The position numbers and the translations under genes were made by a program. Positions 9,985 through 17,544 of a stretch of DNA of 64,000 bases are shown piece after piece. The stretch comes from Escherichia coli (GTDB taxonomy: Bacteria > Pseudomonadota > Gammaproteobacteria > Enterobacterales > Enterobacteriaceae). How positions within the stretch are numbered: the stretch's first letter is position 1; the number at the start of each line of letters is the position of its first letter. The stretch is from the NCBI RefSeq assembly GCF_003790525.1, contig NZ_CP033635.1, one strand, 5' to 3'. Below the pieces are notes generated by a model. That model saw only the letters and a program-made list of their open reading frames with translations. It searched no databases and was not told where the DNA came from.

Positions 9985-12459
9985 ATGAGACAGGAATGTA
10001 TACAAGCGGTCCAGCAGGCGGCGCAGCGCACGTTAACGGCGCGAGAAATACAGAACATTGAAGACCGCATTTATCGAAATATGCGCTCCATTGCTCGTGA
10101 TGACCCGATGTCGTGGCGACAACTTTCCGAATCAGAACGGTTGTATCGTGCAGCACAATTGGCATCTGAAGAATTACAGCGAGAAGCGGCATTAAAGAAA
10201 CGTCGTGTGGCCCTCACTATAGCCGCACGTCAGAGATTGGATAAATTTATCAATAGCTATCAAGGGGCTGATGGGAAACTTGGCGCTCTTAACCGTACTA
10301 TTGCTTTTAATGCAGACGGTAAATCGAATTTCCTCTCTGTTGAATCCAGAACAAAAGCCACCCGTGATTATGCATTGAGTCAATTGCAGGAGGCATTCGA
10401 AGCAGTTGATCCTCGCTTTTTTGGTCTGTTTGAAGATGAAGCGGGCGTACGTGACCTGGTATATGAAATGCGGGGGCAAAATACTGGCAATGCTAAAGCA
10501 AGAAAAGGTGCTAAGGCGTGGAGAGAAGTTACAGAGCTGCTGCGCCGCCGGTTTAATGATGCTGGTGGGGACATTGGCTATCTCGAAAACTGGGGGATCC
10601 CTCAACATCATTCTATGGAAAAGGTTGGGGCGGTATCAAAGGATAAGTGGGTTAGCGATGTTATAGGTAAGCTGGATCGCAAATATTATACCCGAGCCGA
10701 TGGACAACTGATGAACGATGCCGAGTTGTCTGAATTTCTTGGAGAGGCTTATAACACGATCGCTACTGGTGGGCTGAATAAGCTTACTGATACCGGAATG
10801 CGAATTTCCGGCGCACGTGCTAACCGTGGTAATGCATCACGACAGATACATTTCAAAGATGCAGATTCCTATCTGCAATATCAGCAACTTTATGGCGATC
10901 GCTCTCTATGGGAAATCATGGTCGGTCACCTGGAAGGTATCAGTAAAGATATTGCGCTGGTGGAAACATATGGCCCAAACCCCGATCATGTTTTCCGCTC
11001 CCTTCTTGATCAGGTTAAGGCAGAAACGGCAACAGCTAACCCGAGTAAAACCGGTAGCGTCGAGCGTCTGGCGAACAAAACAGAGAACTTGTACAACTTT
11101 ATTTCCGGAAAAACACAGCCTGTAGCGAATCCGCACATCGCGCGATGGTCTGACAATATCCGCAACTGGCTGGTTGCCAGCAGACTCGGATCCGCGTTGC
11201 TGTCATCGTTCTCTGATCTTGGAACCATGTATCTGTCTGCGAAGGTTACCAACCTTCCAATGAACCAGTTATTTCGCAACCAGCTTGAAGCTATGGACCC
11301 AACGAACCGTACAGAACTTGCGCGGGCGCGCCGCGCTGGCCTGGCGATGGAATCTCTACTTGGCAGCGTTAACCGCTGGGCGATGGATAATATGGGGCCG
11401 TCTGTGTCTCGTTGGGCGGCAACGGCGGTAATGCGTGCCAGTGGGCTTACAGCATGGTCAGATGCGCACAAGCGCGCCTATGGCGTAACCATGATGGGAA
11501 GCCTGGGAGAAGTAGTGTCACGGACACCAGACCTTCGTAGCCTCGATGACTCTGATTTTCGTATCCTGAAAAGCAAAGGGATTACTGACACAGACTGGAG
11601 CGTATGGAAGCTGGCGCAACAGGAGGACTGGGGGAACGGTAATAATACGATGCTGACACCGGAAAGCATTATGCGTATCCCTGATTCAGCAGTTAAACAT
11701 CTTGGTGAGCCTGAACGCGTGAAATTTGAGGCAATGCGTAAACTGCTCGGTGCCGTAACTGAAGAAGTTGATATGGCTGTTATTACACCGGGCGCACGTG
11801 AACAGATGTTCGTAGGGTCTGGTCTTCAGCGTGGAACATGGAAAGGTGAATTAACGAGAAGTGTTTTCCTGTTTAAATCGTTCCCTATCTCGGTAGTTAT
11901 GCGTCACTGGCATAGAGCTATGGGGATGCCGTCTGCTGGTGGGCGTGCGGCATATATAGCAACGTTTTTAGCAAGCACAACCATGCTTGGTGCTCTTTCC
12001 ATGCAGATTACTGATCTTATTAATGGGAGAAATCCAAAAGAAATGACCGGTGACAACATGGTTAAATTCTGGATAAATGCATTTTTAAAAGGTGGTGGGG
12101 CAGGGTTGTATGGTGATTTTCTTTTCTCTGACCACACCAGGTACGGGAGCGGCGCACTAGCGTCGATGCTTGGCCCGGTAGCTGGTCTGGTTGATGACGT
12201 AGTGAAGATTGCTCAGGGCATACCGTTAAATGCTGTGGAAGGGAAGAATGAGCAGACTGGTGGTGATCTGGTTAAGCTTGGGAAAGGTTTGATGCCTGGT
12301 GCGAATCTCTGGTACTTGAAGGCGGCTCTCGATCACATGATCTTTAATCAGATGCAGGAGTATTTTTCACCAGGCTATTTGCGTAAAATGGAGCAACGTT
12401 CGAAGAAAGAGTTTAACCAGACATACTGGTGGCGACCTCAGGATGTCACTCCGCAATAA
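9985..12459 (+). CDS. Internal virion / ejection protein (gp16-like position), 824 aa
   Basis: Last large gene of the structural operon; AGAGG RBS upstream. Confidence 0.5.
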   Translation: MRQECIQAVQQAAQRTLTAREIQNIEDRIYRNMRSIARDDPMSWRQLSESERLYRAAQLASEELQREAALKKRRVALTIAARQRLDKFINSYQGADGKLGALNRTIAFNADGKSNFLSVESRTKATRDYALSQLQEAFEAVDPRFFGLFEDEAGVRDLVYEMRGQNTGNAKARKGAKAWREVTELLRRRFNDAGGDIGYLENWGIPQHHSMEKVGAVSKDKWVSDVIGKLDRKYYTRADGQLMNDAELSEFLGEAYNTIATGGLNKLTDTGMRISGARANRGNASRQIHFKDADSYLQYQQLYGDRSLWEIMVGHLEGISKDIALVETYGPNPDHVFRSLLDQVKAETATANPSKTGSVERLANKTENLYNFISGKTQPVANPHIARWSDNIRNWLVASRLGSALLSSFSDLGTMYLSAKVTNLPMNQLFRNQLEAMDPTNRTELARARRAGLAMESLLGSVNRWAMDNMGPSVSRWAATAVMRASGLTAWSDAHKRAYGVTMMGSLGEVVSRTPDLRSLDDSDFRILKSKGITDTDWSVWKLAQQEDWGNGNNTMLTPESIMRIPDSAVKHLGEPERVKFEAMRKLLGAVTEEVDMAVITPGAREQMFVGSGLQRGTWKGELTRSVFLFKSFPISVVMRHWHRAMGMPSAGGRAAYIATFLASTTMLGALSMQITDLINGRNPKEMTGDNMVKFWINAFLKGGGAGLYGDFLFSDHTRYGSGALASMLGPVAGLVDDVVKIAQGIPLNAVEGKNEQTGGDLVKLGKGLMPGANLWYLKAALDHMIFNQMQEYFSPGYLRKMEQRSKKEFNQTYWWRPQDVTPQ

Positions 12460-12468
12460 GGAACAACA

Positions 12469-12882
12469 ATGAAGGAATTATTGCTGTTATCGGTATTTTT
12501 GATATCCGCTTGCTCGACATCCTATGATGTTTATGACGGTGTTGATAAGGCATATTGCGACAAAGTTAAAATGGATTTTTCTCTTGCCAAGACGGCGAAG
12601 GATAGTTGTATTGATCACTACGTCAAGACTTATACCAAGCCAGCCTCATCGGCATCTGATATTGCTGAAGGTGCTGTGTTTGAGTGTAACAAGGTGATAT
12701 CCATCGCAGCGAGTTCTTCATACGATGCTGCTGTATGTGCAATGGCTGAAAGAAACGGCATGTCAGTGCAAAAAATTAATAGCATGATAAGCAGTAATGA
12801 CGAAGCCAAAATAAGAACTGATATCAGCTCGGTGAAAAAAGATGCCATGAACAGAGTTGTAAAATATCAGTCATCTTTATAA
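12469..12882 (+). CDS. Prophage lipoprotein (signal peptide with lipobox L-I-S-A-C), 137 aa, AT-rich gene
   Basis: N-terminus MKELLLLSVFLISAC read directly; AAGGA RBS; sits at the start of the accessory island. Confidence 0.65.
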   Translation: MKELLLLSVFLISACSTSYDVYDGVDKAYCDKVKMDFSLAKTAKDSCIDHYVKTYTKPASSASDIAEGAVFECNKVISIAASSSYDAAVCAMAERNGMSVQKINSMISSNDEAKIRTDISSVKKDAMNRVVKYQSSL

Positions 12883-12897
12883 GTCGTGACATGTCAC

Positions 12898-12922
12898 AGG
12901 CCGCTTTCGCGGCCTTGTTTTT
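12898..12922 (+). terminator. Intrinsic terminator of the structural operon / lipoprotein gene
   Basis: AGGCCGC-TTTC-GCGGCCT hairpin followed by TGTTTTT. Confidence 0.6.
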
Positions 12923-13082
12923 AACGAATGCCACCGCCACCCGGGCGGGAATCCGCAGAACGCCCACCGCAGCGGGAGCCGTCAGCAGCAGTGTCGCTGT
13001 CGTGCTGACAACGACCGGCAAAGGCCTGAGTTGAAGCTACCAGAGACAACAAAACGAACAGTGCAGCAAATGCTTTTTTCAT
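12921..13082 (-). CDS. Candidate small secreted peptide (53 aa, Sec signal MKKAFAALFVLLSLVASTQAFA, two Cys)
   Basis: Internal ATG of the 77-aa ORF; convincing signal peptide but weak RBS; possible TTGACG / TATAGA promoter just upstream. Confidence 0.3.
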   Translation of the reverse strand: MKKAFAALFVLLSLVASTQAFAGRCQHDSDTAADGSRCGGRSADSRPGGGGIR

Positions 13083-13154
13083 TGTGAAATTTCCATCTAT
13101 AAGCCACCTCAATGTGGCGTCAATGAGTGTAGCACTGACTTTTGTTTCGCCCAC

Positions 13155-13176
13155 AAAAAAGCCCGCAGCGCGGGCT
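13155..13176 (-). terminator. Intrinsic terminator of the cargo operon
   Basis: AGCCCGC-GCU-GCGGGCU hairpin followed by six U on the - strand; overlaps the stop codon at 13175. Confidence 0.6.
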
Positions 13177-13615
13177 ATTCTTCTTCATCATTAAAAAGCG
13201 GATTGTTGTTTCCATCTGATGAAAGGAAAGGTATGTGTTCTCTTGAAAATCCAACAATGACAATTTCATTATCATTTTTTGCATAATGAATGCATTCATT
13301 AGAATGCCTTCCGCCAGGGTTGAAATTTAAGTTAATGGTATAATTCTTAAATGTGTTTGGATACCATGTTGGCCCACAATGATAATGCCAATAATTCTCT
13401 TGCTCATAATTGTCTGAGCCGGGAATTTTATCATGGTTATCATCAACCCACGAGGGCTTGTTTTTTCCAACAAGCGCCCTTCCATTGGCAACATCCTCTA
13501 AAAAACTTTGTATGATTTTTATTTCATCATCAGTAAGGAAAGGTCCGTCTACAGCGAAAGGGGTGTTGCTTTCCCCATGTAGAAAACTATTAGATATTCT
13601 AATGTTAAACTTCAA
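13175..13615 (-). CDS. Hypothetical cargo protein, about 146 aa, low GC, Asn-rich, no recognised domain
   Basis: Probable TTG start at 13615 with AGGAG RBS 6 nt upstream, 20 nt after the stop of the 55-aa ORF; ORF track shows a longer frame from 13756 that overlaps the upstream gene. Confidence 0.5.
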   Translation of the reverse strand: MKFNIRISNSFLHGESNTPFAVDGPFLTDDEIKIIQSFLEDVANGRALVGKNKPSWVDDNHDKIPGSDNYEQENYWHYHCGPTWYPNTFKNYTINLNFNPGGRHSNECIHYAKNDNEIVIVGFSREHIPFLSSDGNNNPLFNDEEE

Positions 13616-13635
13616 GGAAAACTCCTGATGTGCTT

Positions 13636-13803
13636 CTATTTGGAGCGAAATGCCGCCTTGAAGTCGCTGAAAGATGTTCCTGTCTGGTAAACCATATCCT
13701 TGTCGCGCTCTTTGCTTGCGCGGCCAAGCATAACTTTTCCAATGACATCCCAGCATTGCTTGGCTTGTTCATTGTGCTGAGTACGATTTTTCAACGCTGT
13801 CAT
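13636..13803 (-). CDS. Small protein (55 aa), first gene of the cargo operon; possible regulator or antitoxin-like partner
   Basis: ATG with AGGAGG RBS 6 nt upstream, placed immediately downstream of promoter P_A; translated by hand. Confidence 0.5.
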   Translation of the reverse strand: MTALKNRTQHNEQAKQCWDVIGKVMLGRASKERDKDMVYQTGTSFSDFKAAFRSK

Positions 13804-13815
13804 ATCGCGCCTCCT

Positions 13816-13858
13816 TTACCTTTAAGGTAATAGTACGCTATTCACCCACAGTCTGCAA
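13816..13858 (-). promoter_or_regulatory. Promoter P_A (-35 TTGCAG at 13853-13858, 17-bp spacer, -10 TACTAT at 13830-13835) with operator copy A (TTACC-TTTAA-GGTAA, 13816..13830)
   Basis: Hexamers and the 15-bp palindrome read directly; the operator abuts the -10 and the RBS. Confidence 0.55.
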
Positions 13859-13867
13859 TCTGTACAG

Positions 13868-13894
13868 AATTATTTAAAGGCACATCCCTGTGCC
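13868..13894 (-). terminator. Terminator-like hairpin after the antirepressor-like gene (GGCACA-GGGA-TGTGCC then TTTAAATAATT)
   Basis: Hairpin read directly; T-rich but interrupted tail. Confidence 0.45.
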
Positions 13895-13902
13895 GCCGCC
13901 CG

Positions 13903-14589
13903 TCAGAAGAACCCAGCCTTGTCGTTGATGTACTCCGCGTGGGTCTGGATATCACGCAGGCATTTGCTCACACCAACAATGTAGCAGAACATGGTGGTCA
14001 GCTCCGCCGCCGCGCCCGATACGTCGTGCCCGTCTTCCTGTAACTGGTTCAGCAGATTCATCAGCAGTGAGTTCTCCGTCAGGCCGAGAACACCAGACGG
14101 AGAATGAATCAGGCTGCGGTAGCCGGGCTTCAGTGGGGCACTGTAGGTTTTGTTCTCTATCTTCATTGCCTGCATCACTGCTGATGCTGTGGCGTTGGCT
14201 ACCTGGTCGGCAACTATCTTTATGCGTTCTTCCTGCGGGAGCGAGTTTTTAATGTAACTTCCGGTGCGGCGGATCTGAGGAAGAACCTCACCTGTAACCC
14301 ATTTACGAAAGCGGTAGGGGATAGTGCCTGGTGTCACTGCGTCGCGGCAGCGGAGGATCAGTGTGTAGAGGCCTGACTCGTTGATAATATTGGTTTCACC
14401 TTGACGGCCTAAGTTAAATTTAGCCCTTTCATCATCATCAAGAGATTTTATTGACATAGTGGGGTTTGTCAGTTGAAGAGCTTTAATAACGTCTTTGGCA
14501 ACAAACCAAGGATTTCCATCAATAACAATGGCTCGAATGGTGGCTTCTGATTCAAAATGAAAAACAGATGGGGTTACGTTAGCAGTCAT
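13903..14589 (-). CDS. Antirepressor-like protein with N-terminal BRO-N / AntA-type domain, 228 aa
   Basis: Motifs FHFE...IR..IDG.PWFVAKDV and ESGLY.LI read in the translation (BRO-N family, from memory); start set at ATG 14589 with AAGGTGA RBS rather than ORF-track 14742, which has no RBS and a Gly/Cys-rich non-protein-like extension. Confidence 0.8.
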   Translation of the reverse strand: MTANVTPSVFHFESEATIRAIVIDGNPWFVAKDVIKALQLTNPTMSIKSLDDDERAKFNLGRQGETNIINESGLYTLILRCRDAVTPGTIPYRFRKWVTGEVLPQIRRTGSYIKNSLPQEERIKIVADQVANATASAVMQAMKIENKTYSAPLKPGYRSLIHSPSGVLGLTENSLLMNLLNQLQEDGHDVSGAAAELTTMFCYIVGVSKCLRDIQTHAEYINDKAGFF

Positions 14590-14742
14590 AGTGATCACCT
14601 TTGTAGTTAGGTTAATCACCACTACCGACGCCAATCGGTTGGTGGTGAACTGTGCAGGGTTGGCGTAACCGGCTACAAAGGACCCGGCGCACCTTTCGGT
14701 GCCCCCACACAGCCCACCATAGAATAGGTGCGCTTTACACAT

Positions 14743-14761
14743 AAAAAAACCGCTTATGCGG
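14743..14761 (-). terminator. Short intrinsic terminator or attenuator in the leader of the antirepressor-like gene (CCGC-AUAA-GCGG followed by seven U)
   Basis: Read on the - strand; stem is only 4-5 bp, so call is tentative. Confidence 0.4.
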
Positions 14762-14855
14762 CATATGTGCCTCTGTAGTAACCCGGGACGCCAATCCCGG
14801 CACTGGATTTTGCCAGTGCCCGATTACTATGGCACAAGAGGAGTGCGATGTAAAT

Positions 14856-14898
14856 TTACCGAAAAGGTAATAATAAACACTCTACTTGGTAATTGCAA
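14856..14898 (-). promoter_or_regulatory. Promoter P_B (-35 TTGCAA at 14893-14898, 17-bp spacer, -10 TATTAT at 14870-14875) with operator copy B (TTACC-GAAAA-GGTAA, 14856..14870)
   Basis: Near-consensus sigma70 hexamers with exact 17-bp spacing; palindrome overlaps the -10 and start site. Confidence 0.6.
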
Positions 14899-14901
14899 AC
14901 C

Positions 14902-15159
14902 TTATCTGGTTTGTTTTCGTAATTGTTCGGCACAATAGTCGAGATGTGTTTGCAGATCCCGCATAGACATCTGTGAGCTGGTGACGTAGTTAATCAGTGC
15001 AGTCAGTTCGGCAAGTGGGCCATCGACATTAAATCCATCCTTATCGAGATCCCGGAGTAATTTCATCAAGTGCGATCCCTCCACCAGTGACCTGACGCCT
15101 CCCGGCGTGTGAATCCTTTCGGTAAATCCGTCTTCCAGTGGATAGTGATACTGCTGCAT
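14902..15159 (-). CDS. Small protein (85 aa) paralogous to the C-terminal domain of the adjacent antirepressor-like protein; candidate SOS-controlled small antirepressor
   Basis: By-eye alignment with the last ~70 aa of the 228-aa protein shows about 40 percent identity; ATG 15159 with GGAG RBS; LexA box directly upstream. Confidence 0.6.
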   Translation of the reverse strand: MQQYHYPLEDGFTERIHTPGGVRSLVEGSHLMKLLRDLDKDGFNVDGPLAELTALINYVTSSQMSMRDLQTHLDYCAEQLRKQTR

Positions 15160-15235: not shown

Positions 15236-15250
15236 TTACCCGAAAGGTAA
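15236..15250. promoter_or_regulatory. Operator copy C (TTACC-CGAAA-GGTAA) in the divergent region between the 85-aa gene and the tailspike gene, next to a TTGCAA hexamer (15229-15234)
   Basis: Third copy of the 15-bp palindrome; promoter partner hexamers not clearly assignable. Confidence 0.45.
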
Positions 15251-15354: not shown

Positions 15355-17544
15355 ATGACGGTCTCAACCGAAGTTGACCACAACGAATACACCGGTAACG
15401 GCGTTACGACATCATTTCCGTATACCTTCCGTATTTTCAAAAAAACCGACCTGGTTGTTCAGGTGTCTGACCTGAACGGGAACGTAACAGAATTGGTTCT
15501 GGATACCGGTTATAAGGTAACTGGAGCGGGCACTTATAGTGGCGGTGAAGTGGTTCTCCAGTCGCCGCTTGCTGCTGGCTGGCGAATTACGATAGAGCGT
15601 GTGCTTGATGTGGTGCAGGAGACTGATCTTCGCAATCAGGGAAAATTTTTCCCCGAAGTTCATGAAGATGCATTTGACTACCTGACGATGCTGATCCAGC
15701 GATGTTTTGGGTGGTTCAGACGTGCATTGATGAAACCATCTTTGCTTGCAAAATATTACGATGCAAAGCAAAACAAAATTTCTAACCTTGCAGATCCATC
15801 ATTTGAGCAGGACGCTGTAAATAATCGCTCAATGCGTAATTATGTCGATGCTGCAATCGCCGGGGTTGTTGGTGGTTTTGGTTGGTTTATACCGTCAGGA
15901 AGCGGGGCAAGACAACGAACATTTCAAAGCAAAATGAGGGATATAATTTCTCCTTGTGATTACGAAGATAATATTTTTATGATTAAGGAGTTGATATCCA
16001 AAGGCAAAAATGCCGCTGTTTTTAACTCATATTATACTTTTGTTATTACTGTTGGCGAATGGGGTGATTTCCCTACACTCAAAGATGCAATCATTGCAGC
16101 CCAGTCAATGAGACCTATGTGGGATGGTGGTAATGCTTTCTGCGAAATAAGAATTAAGACCGGGCATATTATCAACTATCAAATTGAATTCAGTTCAGGT
16201 GTTGATTTGTCTTGGATTAAAATAACATCAGAAGACTCAGTGGTTTTCTCTGACACTCGTTTGTTTACTAAAATCGTTAGAACGTATTACGAATACAAGT
16301 ATTTATTTTACATTTGCGATGCAGCAAAAAGTCCTGTATTTGCTATTCAGATCGAAGAAAATAGAGATGATAGCGATGTTTGTGCATTTATTGTAACTCA
16401 AAAAGCTGAACTTAATTTCTATCCGTATTCAGGTGCTCGAAAGTTCTACGTTGGAATTCATGGTAGTTTTGGTGCAAAAATTAGTGCATATCATACCGGA
16501 TGTGCTCCTGATGAGGAAAGTGTTGCTGCATATATGCCAGAAGGGTATTACGTATGTGATTTTTCTTATAGCAGATACTCTTCCCTGCAACTGGTAAATA
16601 ATGTCAAGGCATCAATGCCTGTAAGCAAGTTTGAACGGTGCACAGAGAGTACGGTTGCGTCAGTTAATTGTATTTATAATGTTAAAGCAGATTTTCAGGG
16701 GTCAAGTGCAAGCTATTGTTATATAGGATGGAATGTAAGAGATGGTTCAAATGTTAATATACGCGACCATAAAACTATACATTGCTCATATCGTGGATTA
16801 ACCTGCATTCATACAGCATATGTTGATGCAAGACGACATGACGTTGAAGAAAGTGATGCAGAAACAAGTGGTAAAGTCCTTGAACCAAATATTGAAAAAG
16901 GTTTTTATGGATGTGCACTTGGTGTGCGTATTGATGGTGCGGGTTGCGTTGATGTTGCTGGTAATGATATGCGCAATTGTGGAACAGCCGTTAATGCAGA
17001 CACTGGTGCTGTTATTTCAGGAAAGGCTGTAGATATCTCAGGGGCTGAGCTGGGATTTGATTGCCATGCAGGAGCATCTGTTAATTTTCCAAGGCTATGG
17101 GGTACAGATATAAAAAAATTAATGCACCTCCAAGATGGTGTAAGGTTTAACTCTAATATTTGTCATGTATTTGGTGCAAATCCCACAAAAGATATTAGAT
17201 GGATTGATGTAGAGAGATCTGAAGCTTCTTTTATGAATGCAACGCTGGATGCAGATTCAGGATTTATTGCCGACTGTGGTAGTAGGATAACCATTGAAGG
17301 AAGTAAAGTTAAAAACCAAACAATAAGAAGTTTTTTTGGATCATATGTGGCTATAAATAATACTGTTGCTGACAGAACTTATTCAGATATAGCCGATGTT
17401 CCGCAGTTGACTATTAGTGGAGGATCTTTTATTTCTGCTACAGGATATTCTAATTCTGACTCCAGCCCTCTGAGGTTGAGCACAACACGAAATACACTTG
17501 GCGTTGGAGGAGCCATATTTTCAACCAATGGGGAAGTTTCATGA
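15355..17544 (+). CDS. Tailspike / tail fiber protein, 729 aa: conserved N-terminal virion-attachment domain plus divergent C-terminal receptor-binding part
   Basis: N-terminus carries the YTGNGVTT.F.Y.F pattern typical of podovirus tail fiber or tailspike adapters (from memory); C-terminal two thirds are AT-rich and Cys-rich; GGAG RBS 7 nt upstream. Confidence 0.7.
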   Translation: MTVSTEVDHNEYTGNGVTTSFPYTFRIFKKTDLVVQVSDLNGNVTELVLDTGYKVTGAGTYSGGEVVLQSPLAAGWRITIERVLDVVQETDLRNQGKFFPEVHEDAFDYLTMLIQRCFGWFRRALMKPSLLAKYYDAKQNKISNLADPSFEQDAVNNRSMRNYVDAAIAGVVGGFGWFIPSGSGARQRTFQSKMRDIISPCDYEDNIFMIKELISKGKNAAVFNSYYTFVITVGEWGDFPTLKDAIIAAQSMRPMWDGGNAFCEIRIKTGHIINYQIEFSSGVDLSWIKITSEDSVVFSDTRLFTKIVRTYYEYKYLFYICDAAKSPVFAIQIEENRDDSDVCAFIVTQKAELNFYPYSGARKFYVGIHGSFGAKISAYHTGCAPDEESVAAYMPEGYYVCDFSYSRYSSLQLVNNVKASMPVSKFERCTESTVASVNCIYNVKADFQGSSASYCYIGWNVRDGSNVNIRDHKTIHCSYRGLTCIHTAYVDARRHDVEESDAETSGKVLEPNIEKGFYGCALGVRIDGAGCVDVAGNDMRNCGTAVNADTGAVISGKAVDISGAELGFDCHAGASVNFPRLWGTDIKKLMHLQDGVRFNSNICHVFGANPTKDIRWIDVERSEASFMNATLDADSGFIADCGSRITIEGSKVKNQTIRSFFGSYVAINNTVADRTYSDIADVPQLTISGGSFISATGYSNSDSSPLRLSTTRNTLGVGGAIFSTNGEVS

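Follow-up and report, generated by a model that had tools for sequence, protein, structure and literature searches.

The minus-strand interval 13175-13803 of a 64,000-nucleotide (nt) stretch of Escherichia coli contig NZ_CP033635.1 (assembly GCF_003790525.1; the whole stretch is called the window here) holds two small prophage genes, encoding proteins of 55 and 146 amino acids (aa). We propose, with a probability of about 0.65, that they are a toxin-antitoxin pair in which the toxin belongs to a new RelE-fold family and the novel antitoxin has no DNA-binding domain, the pair being carried as an exchangeable cassette in a repressor-controlled slot beside an antirepressor gene. The kind of system is known; its family, antitoxin architecture and regulatory wiring are new. 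Toxin-antitoxin function had been one of several candidates in an initial annotation of this DNA, and it is now backed by a predicted RelE/ParE-type fold, by an obligatory partner with a conserved C-terminal motif, and by a YafO-type pair in the same slot of the related phage TL-2011b. The proposal is further supported by purifying selection on both genes (dN/dS, the ratio of nonsynonymous to synonymous substitution rates, was 0.06 in the toxin gene and 0.16 in its 55-aa partner gene against one 75%-identical relative) and by the viability, with normal growth in lysogeny broth (LB), of a published strain in which the toxin gene is deleted and the 55-aa gene intact (PMC7724020). The window is a 99.7% match to Escherichia phage phiv142-3 (genus Uetakevirus, epsilon15-like).

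The initial annotation described a compact unit of promoter, operator, ribosome-binding site, two open reading frames (ORFs) separated by a short gap, and terminator. All of these parts are present, all on the minus strand, and 13175-13803 covers precisely the two ORFs. The parts are as follows.

13853..13858, minus strand: -35-like hexamer TTGCAG, aligning with hexamers of two other leftward units in the window and kept in TL-2011b
13830..13835, minus strand: -10-like hexamer TACTAT, 17 nt past the -35
13816..13830, no strand: operator palindrome TTACCTTAAAGGTAA, a perfect 15-base-pair (bp) TTACC-N5-GGTAA, overlapping the final base of the -10 and the predicted transcription start
13810..13815, minus strand: Shine-Dalgarno AGGAGG, 6 nt ahead of the ATG of the 55-aa ORF
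13636..13803, minus strand: 55-aa ORF, candidate antitoxin, with ATG at 13803 and stop TAG at 13638-13636
13622..13626, minus strand: Shine-Dalgarno AGGAG, within the intergenic gap, 6 nt ahead of the TTG
13175..13615, minus strand: 146-aa ORF, candidate RelE/ParE-fold toxin, with TTG at 13615 and stop at 13177-13175
13448-13468 and 13373-13390, minus strand: toxin motifs GKNKPSW and WHYHCG, respectively
13150..13176, minus strand: intrinsic terminator, a 7-bp GC-rich stem (13176-13160) followed by the T-run TTTTTTGTGGG
13199..13811, minus strand: exchangeable two-gene cassette, at both borders of which TL-2011b homology ends

The promoter hexamers were read by eye; their combined 8 of 12 matches lie under the promoter-scan threshold, so they do not appear in the scan list. 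The gap between the ORFs is exactly 20 nt (13635-13616). The NCBI pipeline PGAP annotates the identical two coding sequences in E. coli genomes (WP_000125783.1 and WP_000671198.1, both "hypothetical"), agreeing with the TTG start suggested initially for the 146-aa ORF, and the TTG, with an MKF/MKI N terminus, is retained in relatives at 75% identity. A 193-aa in-frame reading of the same ORF from an ATG at 13756 was rejected, as it overlaps the 55-aa ORF and relatives have stops in its extension (149 to 164 aa from stop to stop). The second gene is AT-rich, as had been remarked, with 35.6% guanine plus cytosine (GC) compared with 50.8% for the window and 47% for the 55-aa gene, and its product is indeed rich in asparagine (20 of 146 residues). 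Within 13175-13803, Rfam gave no significant match to a structured RNA, the one hit being a chance Trp_leader at an E value of 0.36.

The first reading had recognized no domain in either protein, and profile searches of Pfam, NCBIfam, PADLOC and PDB sequences, all of them empty, bear this out. Pfam returned zero matches for the two proteins and for sets of 25 and 56 family members, NCBIfam matched neither protein, PDB gave nothing from the toxin-profile search or from the search with the 55-aa protein, and PADLOC-DB 2.0 held no defence families for either protein at E values up to 1. Nor did the 146-aa protein match the profiles of RelE/ParE member families (ParE_toxin, YafQ, YoeB, HigB, YafO, BrnT and others). 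Among PHROGs, each protein falls in an "unknown function" family only, that of the 55-aa protein being phrog_8607. The 146-aa family is small: out of billions of proteins, 34 clusters belong to it at the 90% identity level and 68 representatives at the 50% level, all of them unnamed. Its relatives in AlphaFold DB, from Enterobacterales, Pasteurellaceae, Aeromonas, Neisseria and, more remotely, Moraxella, are all "uncharacterized." Every family context that we inspected was a prophage or a phage contig, the genes lying in nin (early) or late regions in other phages. The module occurs in 76 of 5426 complete E. coli genomes, at full length in each.

The fold carries more information. An AlphaFold model of the 146-aa protein (predicted local distance difference test [pLDDT], 91.6; predicted template modelling score [pTM], 0.86) is a compact alpha/beta structure in which an N-terminal strand and helices pack against an antiparallel beta-sheet, the arrangement that the RelE/ParE superfamily requires. 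The structure search that had been recommended as a check, made with Foldseek against the PDB, ranked the RelE/ParE superfamily first, with nonsignificant E values (0.17 or worse) and target-normalized TM-scores of 0.5 to 0.66. Fold comparison gave figures of 7.6 for Thermus RelE, 7.4 for YafQ, 6.9 for YoeB and HigB, 5.9 for ParE, and 4.7 for BrnT, with about 80 residues aligned to targets about 88 residues long. On these models, the assignment to the RelE/ParE fold is well supported, though not certain.

Conservation adds a candidate active site. Across 56 diverse members, G50, N52, K53, H77, H79, N99 and H127 are invariant, and W76, Y78, G81, H110, Y111 and F130 are at least 90% conserved. 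The HYHCGP stretch that had looked conserved at first sight lies where the family is most conserved, in WHYHCG, which contains the invariant H77 and H79. In the model, these two histidines lie on strand 75-79, H110 and Y111 on strand 108-113, and H127 just after strand 117-124. YafQ and YoeB have their catalytic histidines on these strands and behind the final one, and this correspondence is the reason that ribonuclease (RNase) activity is our preferred reading of the model. The 146-aa protein would then be a member of the RelE/ParE superfamily, most likely a ribosome-dependent mRNA endonuclease, with catalysis by the invariant His77, His79 and His127 (together with His110/Tyr111) and by a basic GxNK loop.

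The second line of evidence is the partner gene. Our locus set comprised 77 viral loci plus several genomic ones, and at 81 of the 81 loci with a full-length toxin, a same-strand upstream ORF of at least 40 aa ends near the toxin start. Across relatives the two genes are co-oriented, with the partner first, and their junction ranges from a 22-nt gap to a 16-nt overlap. A homologue of the partner was detected by jackhmmer in 46 loci, and its C-terminal motif was seen by inspection in the others examined. This motif occupies the last 35 or so residues and consists of a hydrophobic stretch with an Arg, 8 to 10 residues, an aromatic residue, and then S-F/V-x-D-F/I/L-x-x-A; the one Arg that is invariant among partners is R28 of the 55-aa protein, in which it is followed by strand M37-Y39 and helix F45-R53.

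The N-terminal part of the partner varies in length, up to about 150 residues. The 55- to 70-aa partners of P22-like and epsilon15-like enterobacterial phages lack it; in Klebsiella lambdoid prophages, in which the pair follows a third gene, it spans about 50 to 70 residues; and in Pasteurellaceae-type phages it reaches about 130 to 150 residues, including a hydrophobic segment. The comparison of these sequences points to a modular antitoxin build in which a constant toxin-binding tail is joined to a variable head. The Klebsiella modules (L003-L006, L046 and L048, all in nin regions) encode, in order, a 95-aa protein, a 102- to 123-aa protein and the toxin, and the Pasteurellaceae-type contigs (L049-L085) have partners of 185 to 211 aa (phrog_18778) with a hydrophobic N-terminal segment. 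The module of L050 lies 3' of a long tape-measure-like protein, and that of L008 lies 3' of a MuF/ART polyvalent protein. At L050 and L053 a stop breaks the toxin frame after codon 45, but the reading frame of the 211-aa partner is preserved, which is the direction of decay expected of a toxin-antitoxin pair.

Searches of NCBIfam, Pfam and PDB found no DNA-binding domain in the 55-aa protein, the model of which consists only of a helix, a strand and a helix. When the toxin, a (GGGGS)6 linker and the 55-aa protein were modelled as a single fusion with a paired alignment, the linker was disordered and partner residues 15-54 had pLDDT values of 89 to 96, with helices at 1-25 and 45-53, a strand at 37-39 that had no second partner strand to pair with, and a pTM of 0.77 for the whole. 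Such a pTM would be hard to reach unless both parts were confidently placed relative to each other. These models suggest that the 55-aa protein is a direct protein inhibitor of the toxin, predicted to bind through its C-terminal segment, that is, the invariant Arg28, the short beta-strand and the terminal helix.

Comparison with TL-2011b shows where the cassette begins and ends. In a blastn search with the window, the flanks of the pair were about 96% identical to TL-2011b (12884-13198 and 13812-14380) and the interior was unrelated: the slot of TL-2011b is occupied by a 59-aa ORF and a 181-aa protein (the gp45-gp44 pair) that RefSeq names a YafO-family toxin, several close relatives of which carry PF13957. 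Other relatives match the flanks of the pair region only. Since promoter, operator and terminator are conserved in TL-2011b around a different cargo, they belong to the phage backbone, and only the two ORFs are cargo. The initial annotation had inferred a horizontally acquired moron. A low-GC exchangeable cassette with breakpoints near 13199 and 13811 agrees with that description, whereas the promoter, operator and terminator that were counted as part of the moron are phage sequence. Two side observations concern this junction. The terminator hairpin is common to the window and TL-2011b but inverted between them, and the two unrelated toxin genes share similar tails, NPLFNDEEE and EDLFSDKWKE (TL-2011b, locus L002, 4052-4135, compared with window 13150-13230). 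Together these may mark a recombination junction or a common C-terminal signal.

The third line of evidence concerns control of the slot. Exact copies of TTACC-N5-GGTAA occur three times in the window (13816-13830, 14856-14870 and 15236-15250), compared with 0.01 expected, and each copy lies directly 3' of the -10-like hexamer of a leftward unit, namely the pair, the antirepressor gene and a small antirepressor-like ORF. The phiv142-3 genome (L087) has 15 copies with one mismatch allowed, compared with 0.6 expected. Six of these bracket the repressor gene Orf43 in an OR/OL-like layout, and the others precede early and late gene blocks. Orf43 has two helix-turn-helix (HTH) domains in tandem and no protease domain, a content that fits a repressor inactivated by an antirepressor. 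From this distribution of sites, the palindrome is most likely the operator of the prophage's primary immunity repressor, an operator that does not seem to have been described before.

Two other readings of the palindrome were rejected. A LexA box or an MqsA-type ACCT-N3-AGGT site, considered by eye, disagrees with the core, TTACC...GGTAA, and with the clustering of copies around a phage repressor gene; autoregulation by the antitoxin disagrees with the presence of the same operator before the unrelated cargo of TL-2011b and before other phage promoters. The distribution of the operator would place the pair promoter under the primary repressor, off in a quiet lysogen and on at induction or infection. 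Hence the pair is probably switched on at those times, as judged from its sites, instead of being expressed constitutively in lysogens, which would set it apart from a classical moron with autonomous expression. We propose that transcription is set by the backbone promoter through an operator bound most likely by the two-HTH repressor, and not by autoregulation, so that the pair would be mostly silent in a stable lysogen and would come on together with the neighbouring antirepressor gene once immunity is lifted, by induction or in a fresh infection. The same palindrome also occurs about 40 nt 5' of the first gene of the Klebsiella three-gene module, despite a different phage backbone.

The literature on this locus consists of a single paper, PMC7724020, which studied an "orf10" of phiv142-3 (QGF19616.1, 52 aa). 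This ORF corresponds to 13327-13485 on the minus strand and lies out of frame within the 146-aa gene. The published knockout primers map to 13486-13545 and 13267-13326, and the deletion takes out toxin codons from about 44 to 96, among them those for GKNKPSW and WHYHCG, without touching the 55-aa gene. The region was induced 2^4.12-fold in chicken serum along with most prophage genes, including orf40 and orf41 (PMC7724020). Both of the latter genes lie just downstream of the operators that flank the repressor gene, and their parallel induction with the toxin region fits a common repressor. The mutant grew normally in LB, its survival in 50% chicken serum was about 60%, its kps transcripts were about 2-fold lower, and its loads in blood and heart were lower, with bacterial loads restored by a plasmid (PMC7724020). 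These data indicate that the region is transcribed and that loss of the toxin is harmless.

The strongest rival explanation is that the pair is a tool of the lytic cycle, in which a RelE-like RNase shuts down or remodels host translation at induction or infection, with the 55-aa protein as an inhibitor that sets timing or dosage, in a logic like that of T4 RegB. Much of the regulatory evidence is compatible with it: the operator in the pair promoter is found on both sides of the primary repressor gene and ahead of early genes as well, the adjoining antirepressor gene bears the same operator, the toxin region was induced by the factor given above alongside the early genes orf40 and orf41 (PMC7724020), and the family occupies early (nin) or late regions of other phages, always within phage genomes. 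The cassette, however, is dispensable and exchangeable, TL-2011b having another pair and other relatives matching the flanks only, and is rare among complete E. coli genomes (76 of 5426). This excludes an essential lytic function and leaves an accessory one, and we regard the lytic-tool explanation as unlikely.

It is less likely again that the 146-aa protein has a RelE-like fold but is no growth-arresting toxin, serving instead as a regulator or virulence-associated factor through which serum resistance and the expression of K1 capsule genes increase, the 55-aa protein being its cofactor. The phenotypes obtained on deletion of 13327-13485, with lowered serum survival, kps transcripts and blood and heart loads and with loads restored by plasmid (PMC7724020), speak in its favour. 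These effects are small and could arise indirectly from an RNase toxin or from an FRT (FLP recognition target) scar; the authors worked with the misframed 52-aa ORF, and how far the complementing fragment extends is not stated in PMC7724020. An invariant His/Lys set together with an obligatory, abutting partner gene is, in addition, the signature of an enzyme and its inhibitor.

A ParE-like toxin that poisons DNA gyrase or another non-RNA target in place of acting as an mRNA endonuclease is improbable; the pointers to the RNase branch are the invariant His, Lys and Tyr residues only. That the 52-aa "orf10" is the real gene and the 146-aa frame spurious can be dismissed, even with its annotation in GenBank MN187550 and the phenotypes assigned to it by PMC7724020, since relatives at 75% identity already have a stop early in that frame, and more distant ones have several, whereas the 146-aa reading is open in related loci (the interrupted copy in L050/L053 being the only exception) and has 68 representatives at 50% identity, the low dN/dS, the confident model (pLDDT, 91.6) and a PGAP call.

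Several points weigh against a toxin-antitoxin pair. A tie at the sequence level to known toxin families is absent (Pfam, NCBIfam, PADLOC, the PDB profile search and hhalign to YafO), the candidate antitoxin has no DNA-binding domain of the kind typical of type II antitoxins, and the proposed active site with its invariant residues, like the proposed contact surface between toxin and partner, would follow solely from the order of secondary-structure elements and from model confidence values. The sole experimental phenotype is a mild loss of serum resistance upon disruption of the toxin gene (PMC7724020). If the promoter is repressed in lysogens, moreover, the classical addiction logic would not apply. 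Gene structure, fold, conservation, the obligatory partner, cassette exchange and operator distribution were computed; from them we infer toxicity, RNase chemistry, neutralization, the identity of the operator-binding protein and the biological role.

The toxin-antitoxin reading offers a predicted function for two families that are uncharacterized everywhere (PHROG 5954 and 8607, WP_000671198.1 and WP_000125783.1, and all AlphaFold DB relatives) and that occur in prophages of Enterobacterales, Pasteurellaceae, Aeromonas, Neisseria and Moraxella. It also describes an unusual logic in which RelE-type pairs, the one here and the YafO-type pair in TL-2011b, sit in a slot that is controlled by the immunity repressor and lies beside an antirepressor gene, which makes the role of such toxins in prophage induction directly testable. 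The serum-resistance and chicken-colonization phenotypes of "orf10" should be reassigned and retested. Tentatively, one might go further and suppose that a new toxin family is gated by the primary immunity repressor instead of by its own antitoxin and acts at induction or infection as a phage-timed translation shutoff, a commitment switch or an exclusion device; that its antitoxins combine a fixed C-terminal toxin-binding peptide with interchangeable, possibly sensor, N-terminal domains; and that it is the true basis of the "orf10" serum-resistance and colonization phenotype of avian pathogenic E. coli. We consider this wider proposal possible but doubtful.

On one side of the pair lie a virion structural gene (9985-12459) and two small accessory genes of envelope type, which encode a 137-aa protein whose signal is lipoprotein-like (12469-12882, plus strand; phrog_8691, function unknown) and a 54-aa signal-peptide protein (12921-13085, minus strand; phrog_14503, "membrane associated protein" in the moron category). 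On the other side are the Bro-N antirepressor gene, a small ORF paralogous to the antirepressor's C-terminal part, and a tail fibre gene. In the interval 14638-14832, on the minus strand, Rfam identified a C4 antisense RNA (79.5 bits) and an isrK-like RNA (74.7 bits), together with an a1/b1 target element whose 44.1 bits fall just below the gathering score of 46.7. These RNAs, directly 5' of the antirepressor gene, correspond to P1/P7-type antisense control of ant in an epsilon15-like phage, and their position upstream of ant indicates that the 279-aa ORF at 13903-14742 is overlong, its real start lying near 14562. The paralogue is an 85-aa ORF (14902-15159, minus strand; phrog_450) with its own promoter and operator copy. 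The tail fibre gene (15355-17544) is low in GC (about 36 to 40%); in another E. coli strain (L086), in which the region is otherwise identical, an endosialidase-type gene replaces it from 5521 onward, indicating that receptor-binding modules are swapped, and an extra 242-aa ORF lies between the antirepressor gene and the 85-aa ORF.

Set against known systems, the pair resembles type II toxin-antitoxin systems in having two small, adjacent, co-oriented and coupled genes with the antitoxin first, and departs from them in having no autoregulating DNA-binding antitoxin. As a phage moron it fits by its 35.6% GC and cassette exchange, and the backbone promoter, operator and terminator, probably under the immunity repressor, point otherwise. 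Compared with the RelE, YafQ, YoeB and HigB mRNA interferases, the 146-aa protein has no detectable sequence or profile similarity, is about 60% longer, and contains two insertions with invariant residues (GxNKxSW and N99), while its partner belongs to no known antitoxin family and lacks a DNA-binding domain, and its promoter is under a phage operator and not under the antitoxin.

The YafO family (PF13957) invites the closest comparison, as the gp45-gp44 pair of TL-2011b lies in exactly this slot under the same promoter and operator. By eye, the motifs follow one another in a similar order (HxH, hhY, a hydrophobic strand followed by His, and a C-terminal "LF.D" tail), and both systems appear to be expressed upon a stress or induction signal and not by autoregulation alone, which for the 146-aa protein is a prediction. 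Expression of yafNO is tied to a stress signal, the genes being part of the SOS-regulated dinB-yafN-yafO-yafP operon of E. coli. The upstream partners, in contrast, are unrelated, and PF13957 is unmatched by the 146-aa protein. Homology to YafO, suggested by the motif order and by the TL-2011b slot, was rejected, since the hhalign probability was 0.2% for the gp44 family and 1.2% for E. coli YafO (itself validated as PF13957 at an E value of 1.8e-39), even with relaxed alignment settings.

The location is reminiscent of the immI regions of P1/P7 (c4 RNA, icd, ant) and of P22 (mnt, arc, ant), in that the pair lies directly 3' of an antirepressor gene preceded by a C4 antisense RNA, a1/b1 targets and an isrK-like RNA, although classical immI regions include no toxin-antitoxin pair. 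As with C1 of P1, copies of a single repressor operator are spread across many of the genome's promoters; neither the operator sequence nor the tandem-HTH repressor found here is, however, related to P1 C1 or to P22 Mnt/Arc. Finally, like Phd-Doc of P1 and like HigBA, the pair would be a two-gene module of toxin and inhibitor carried as accessory cargo by a temperate phage. Those systems control their own transcription and work in the carrier state, through addiction or abortive infection, whereas the operator described here predicts expression mainly when immunity is lifted.

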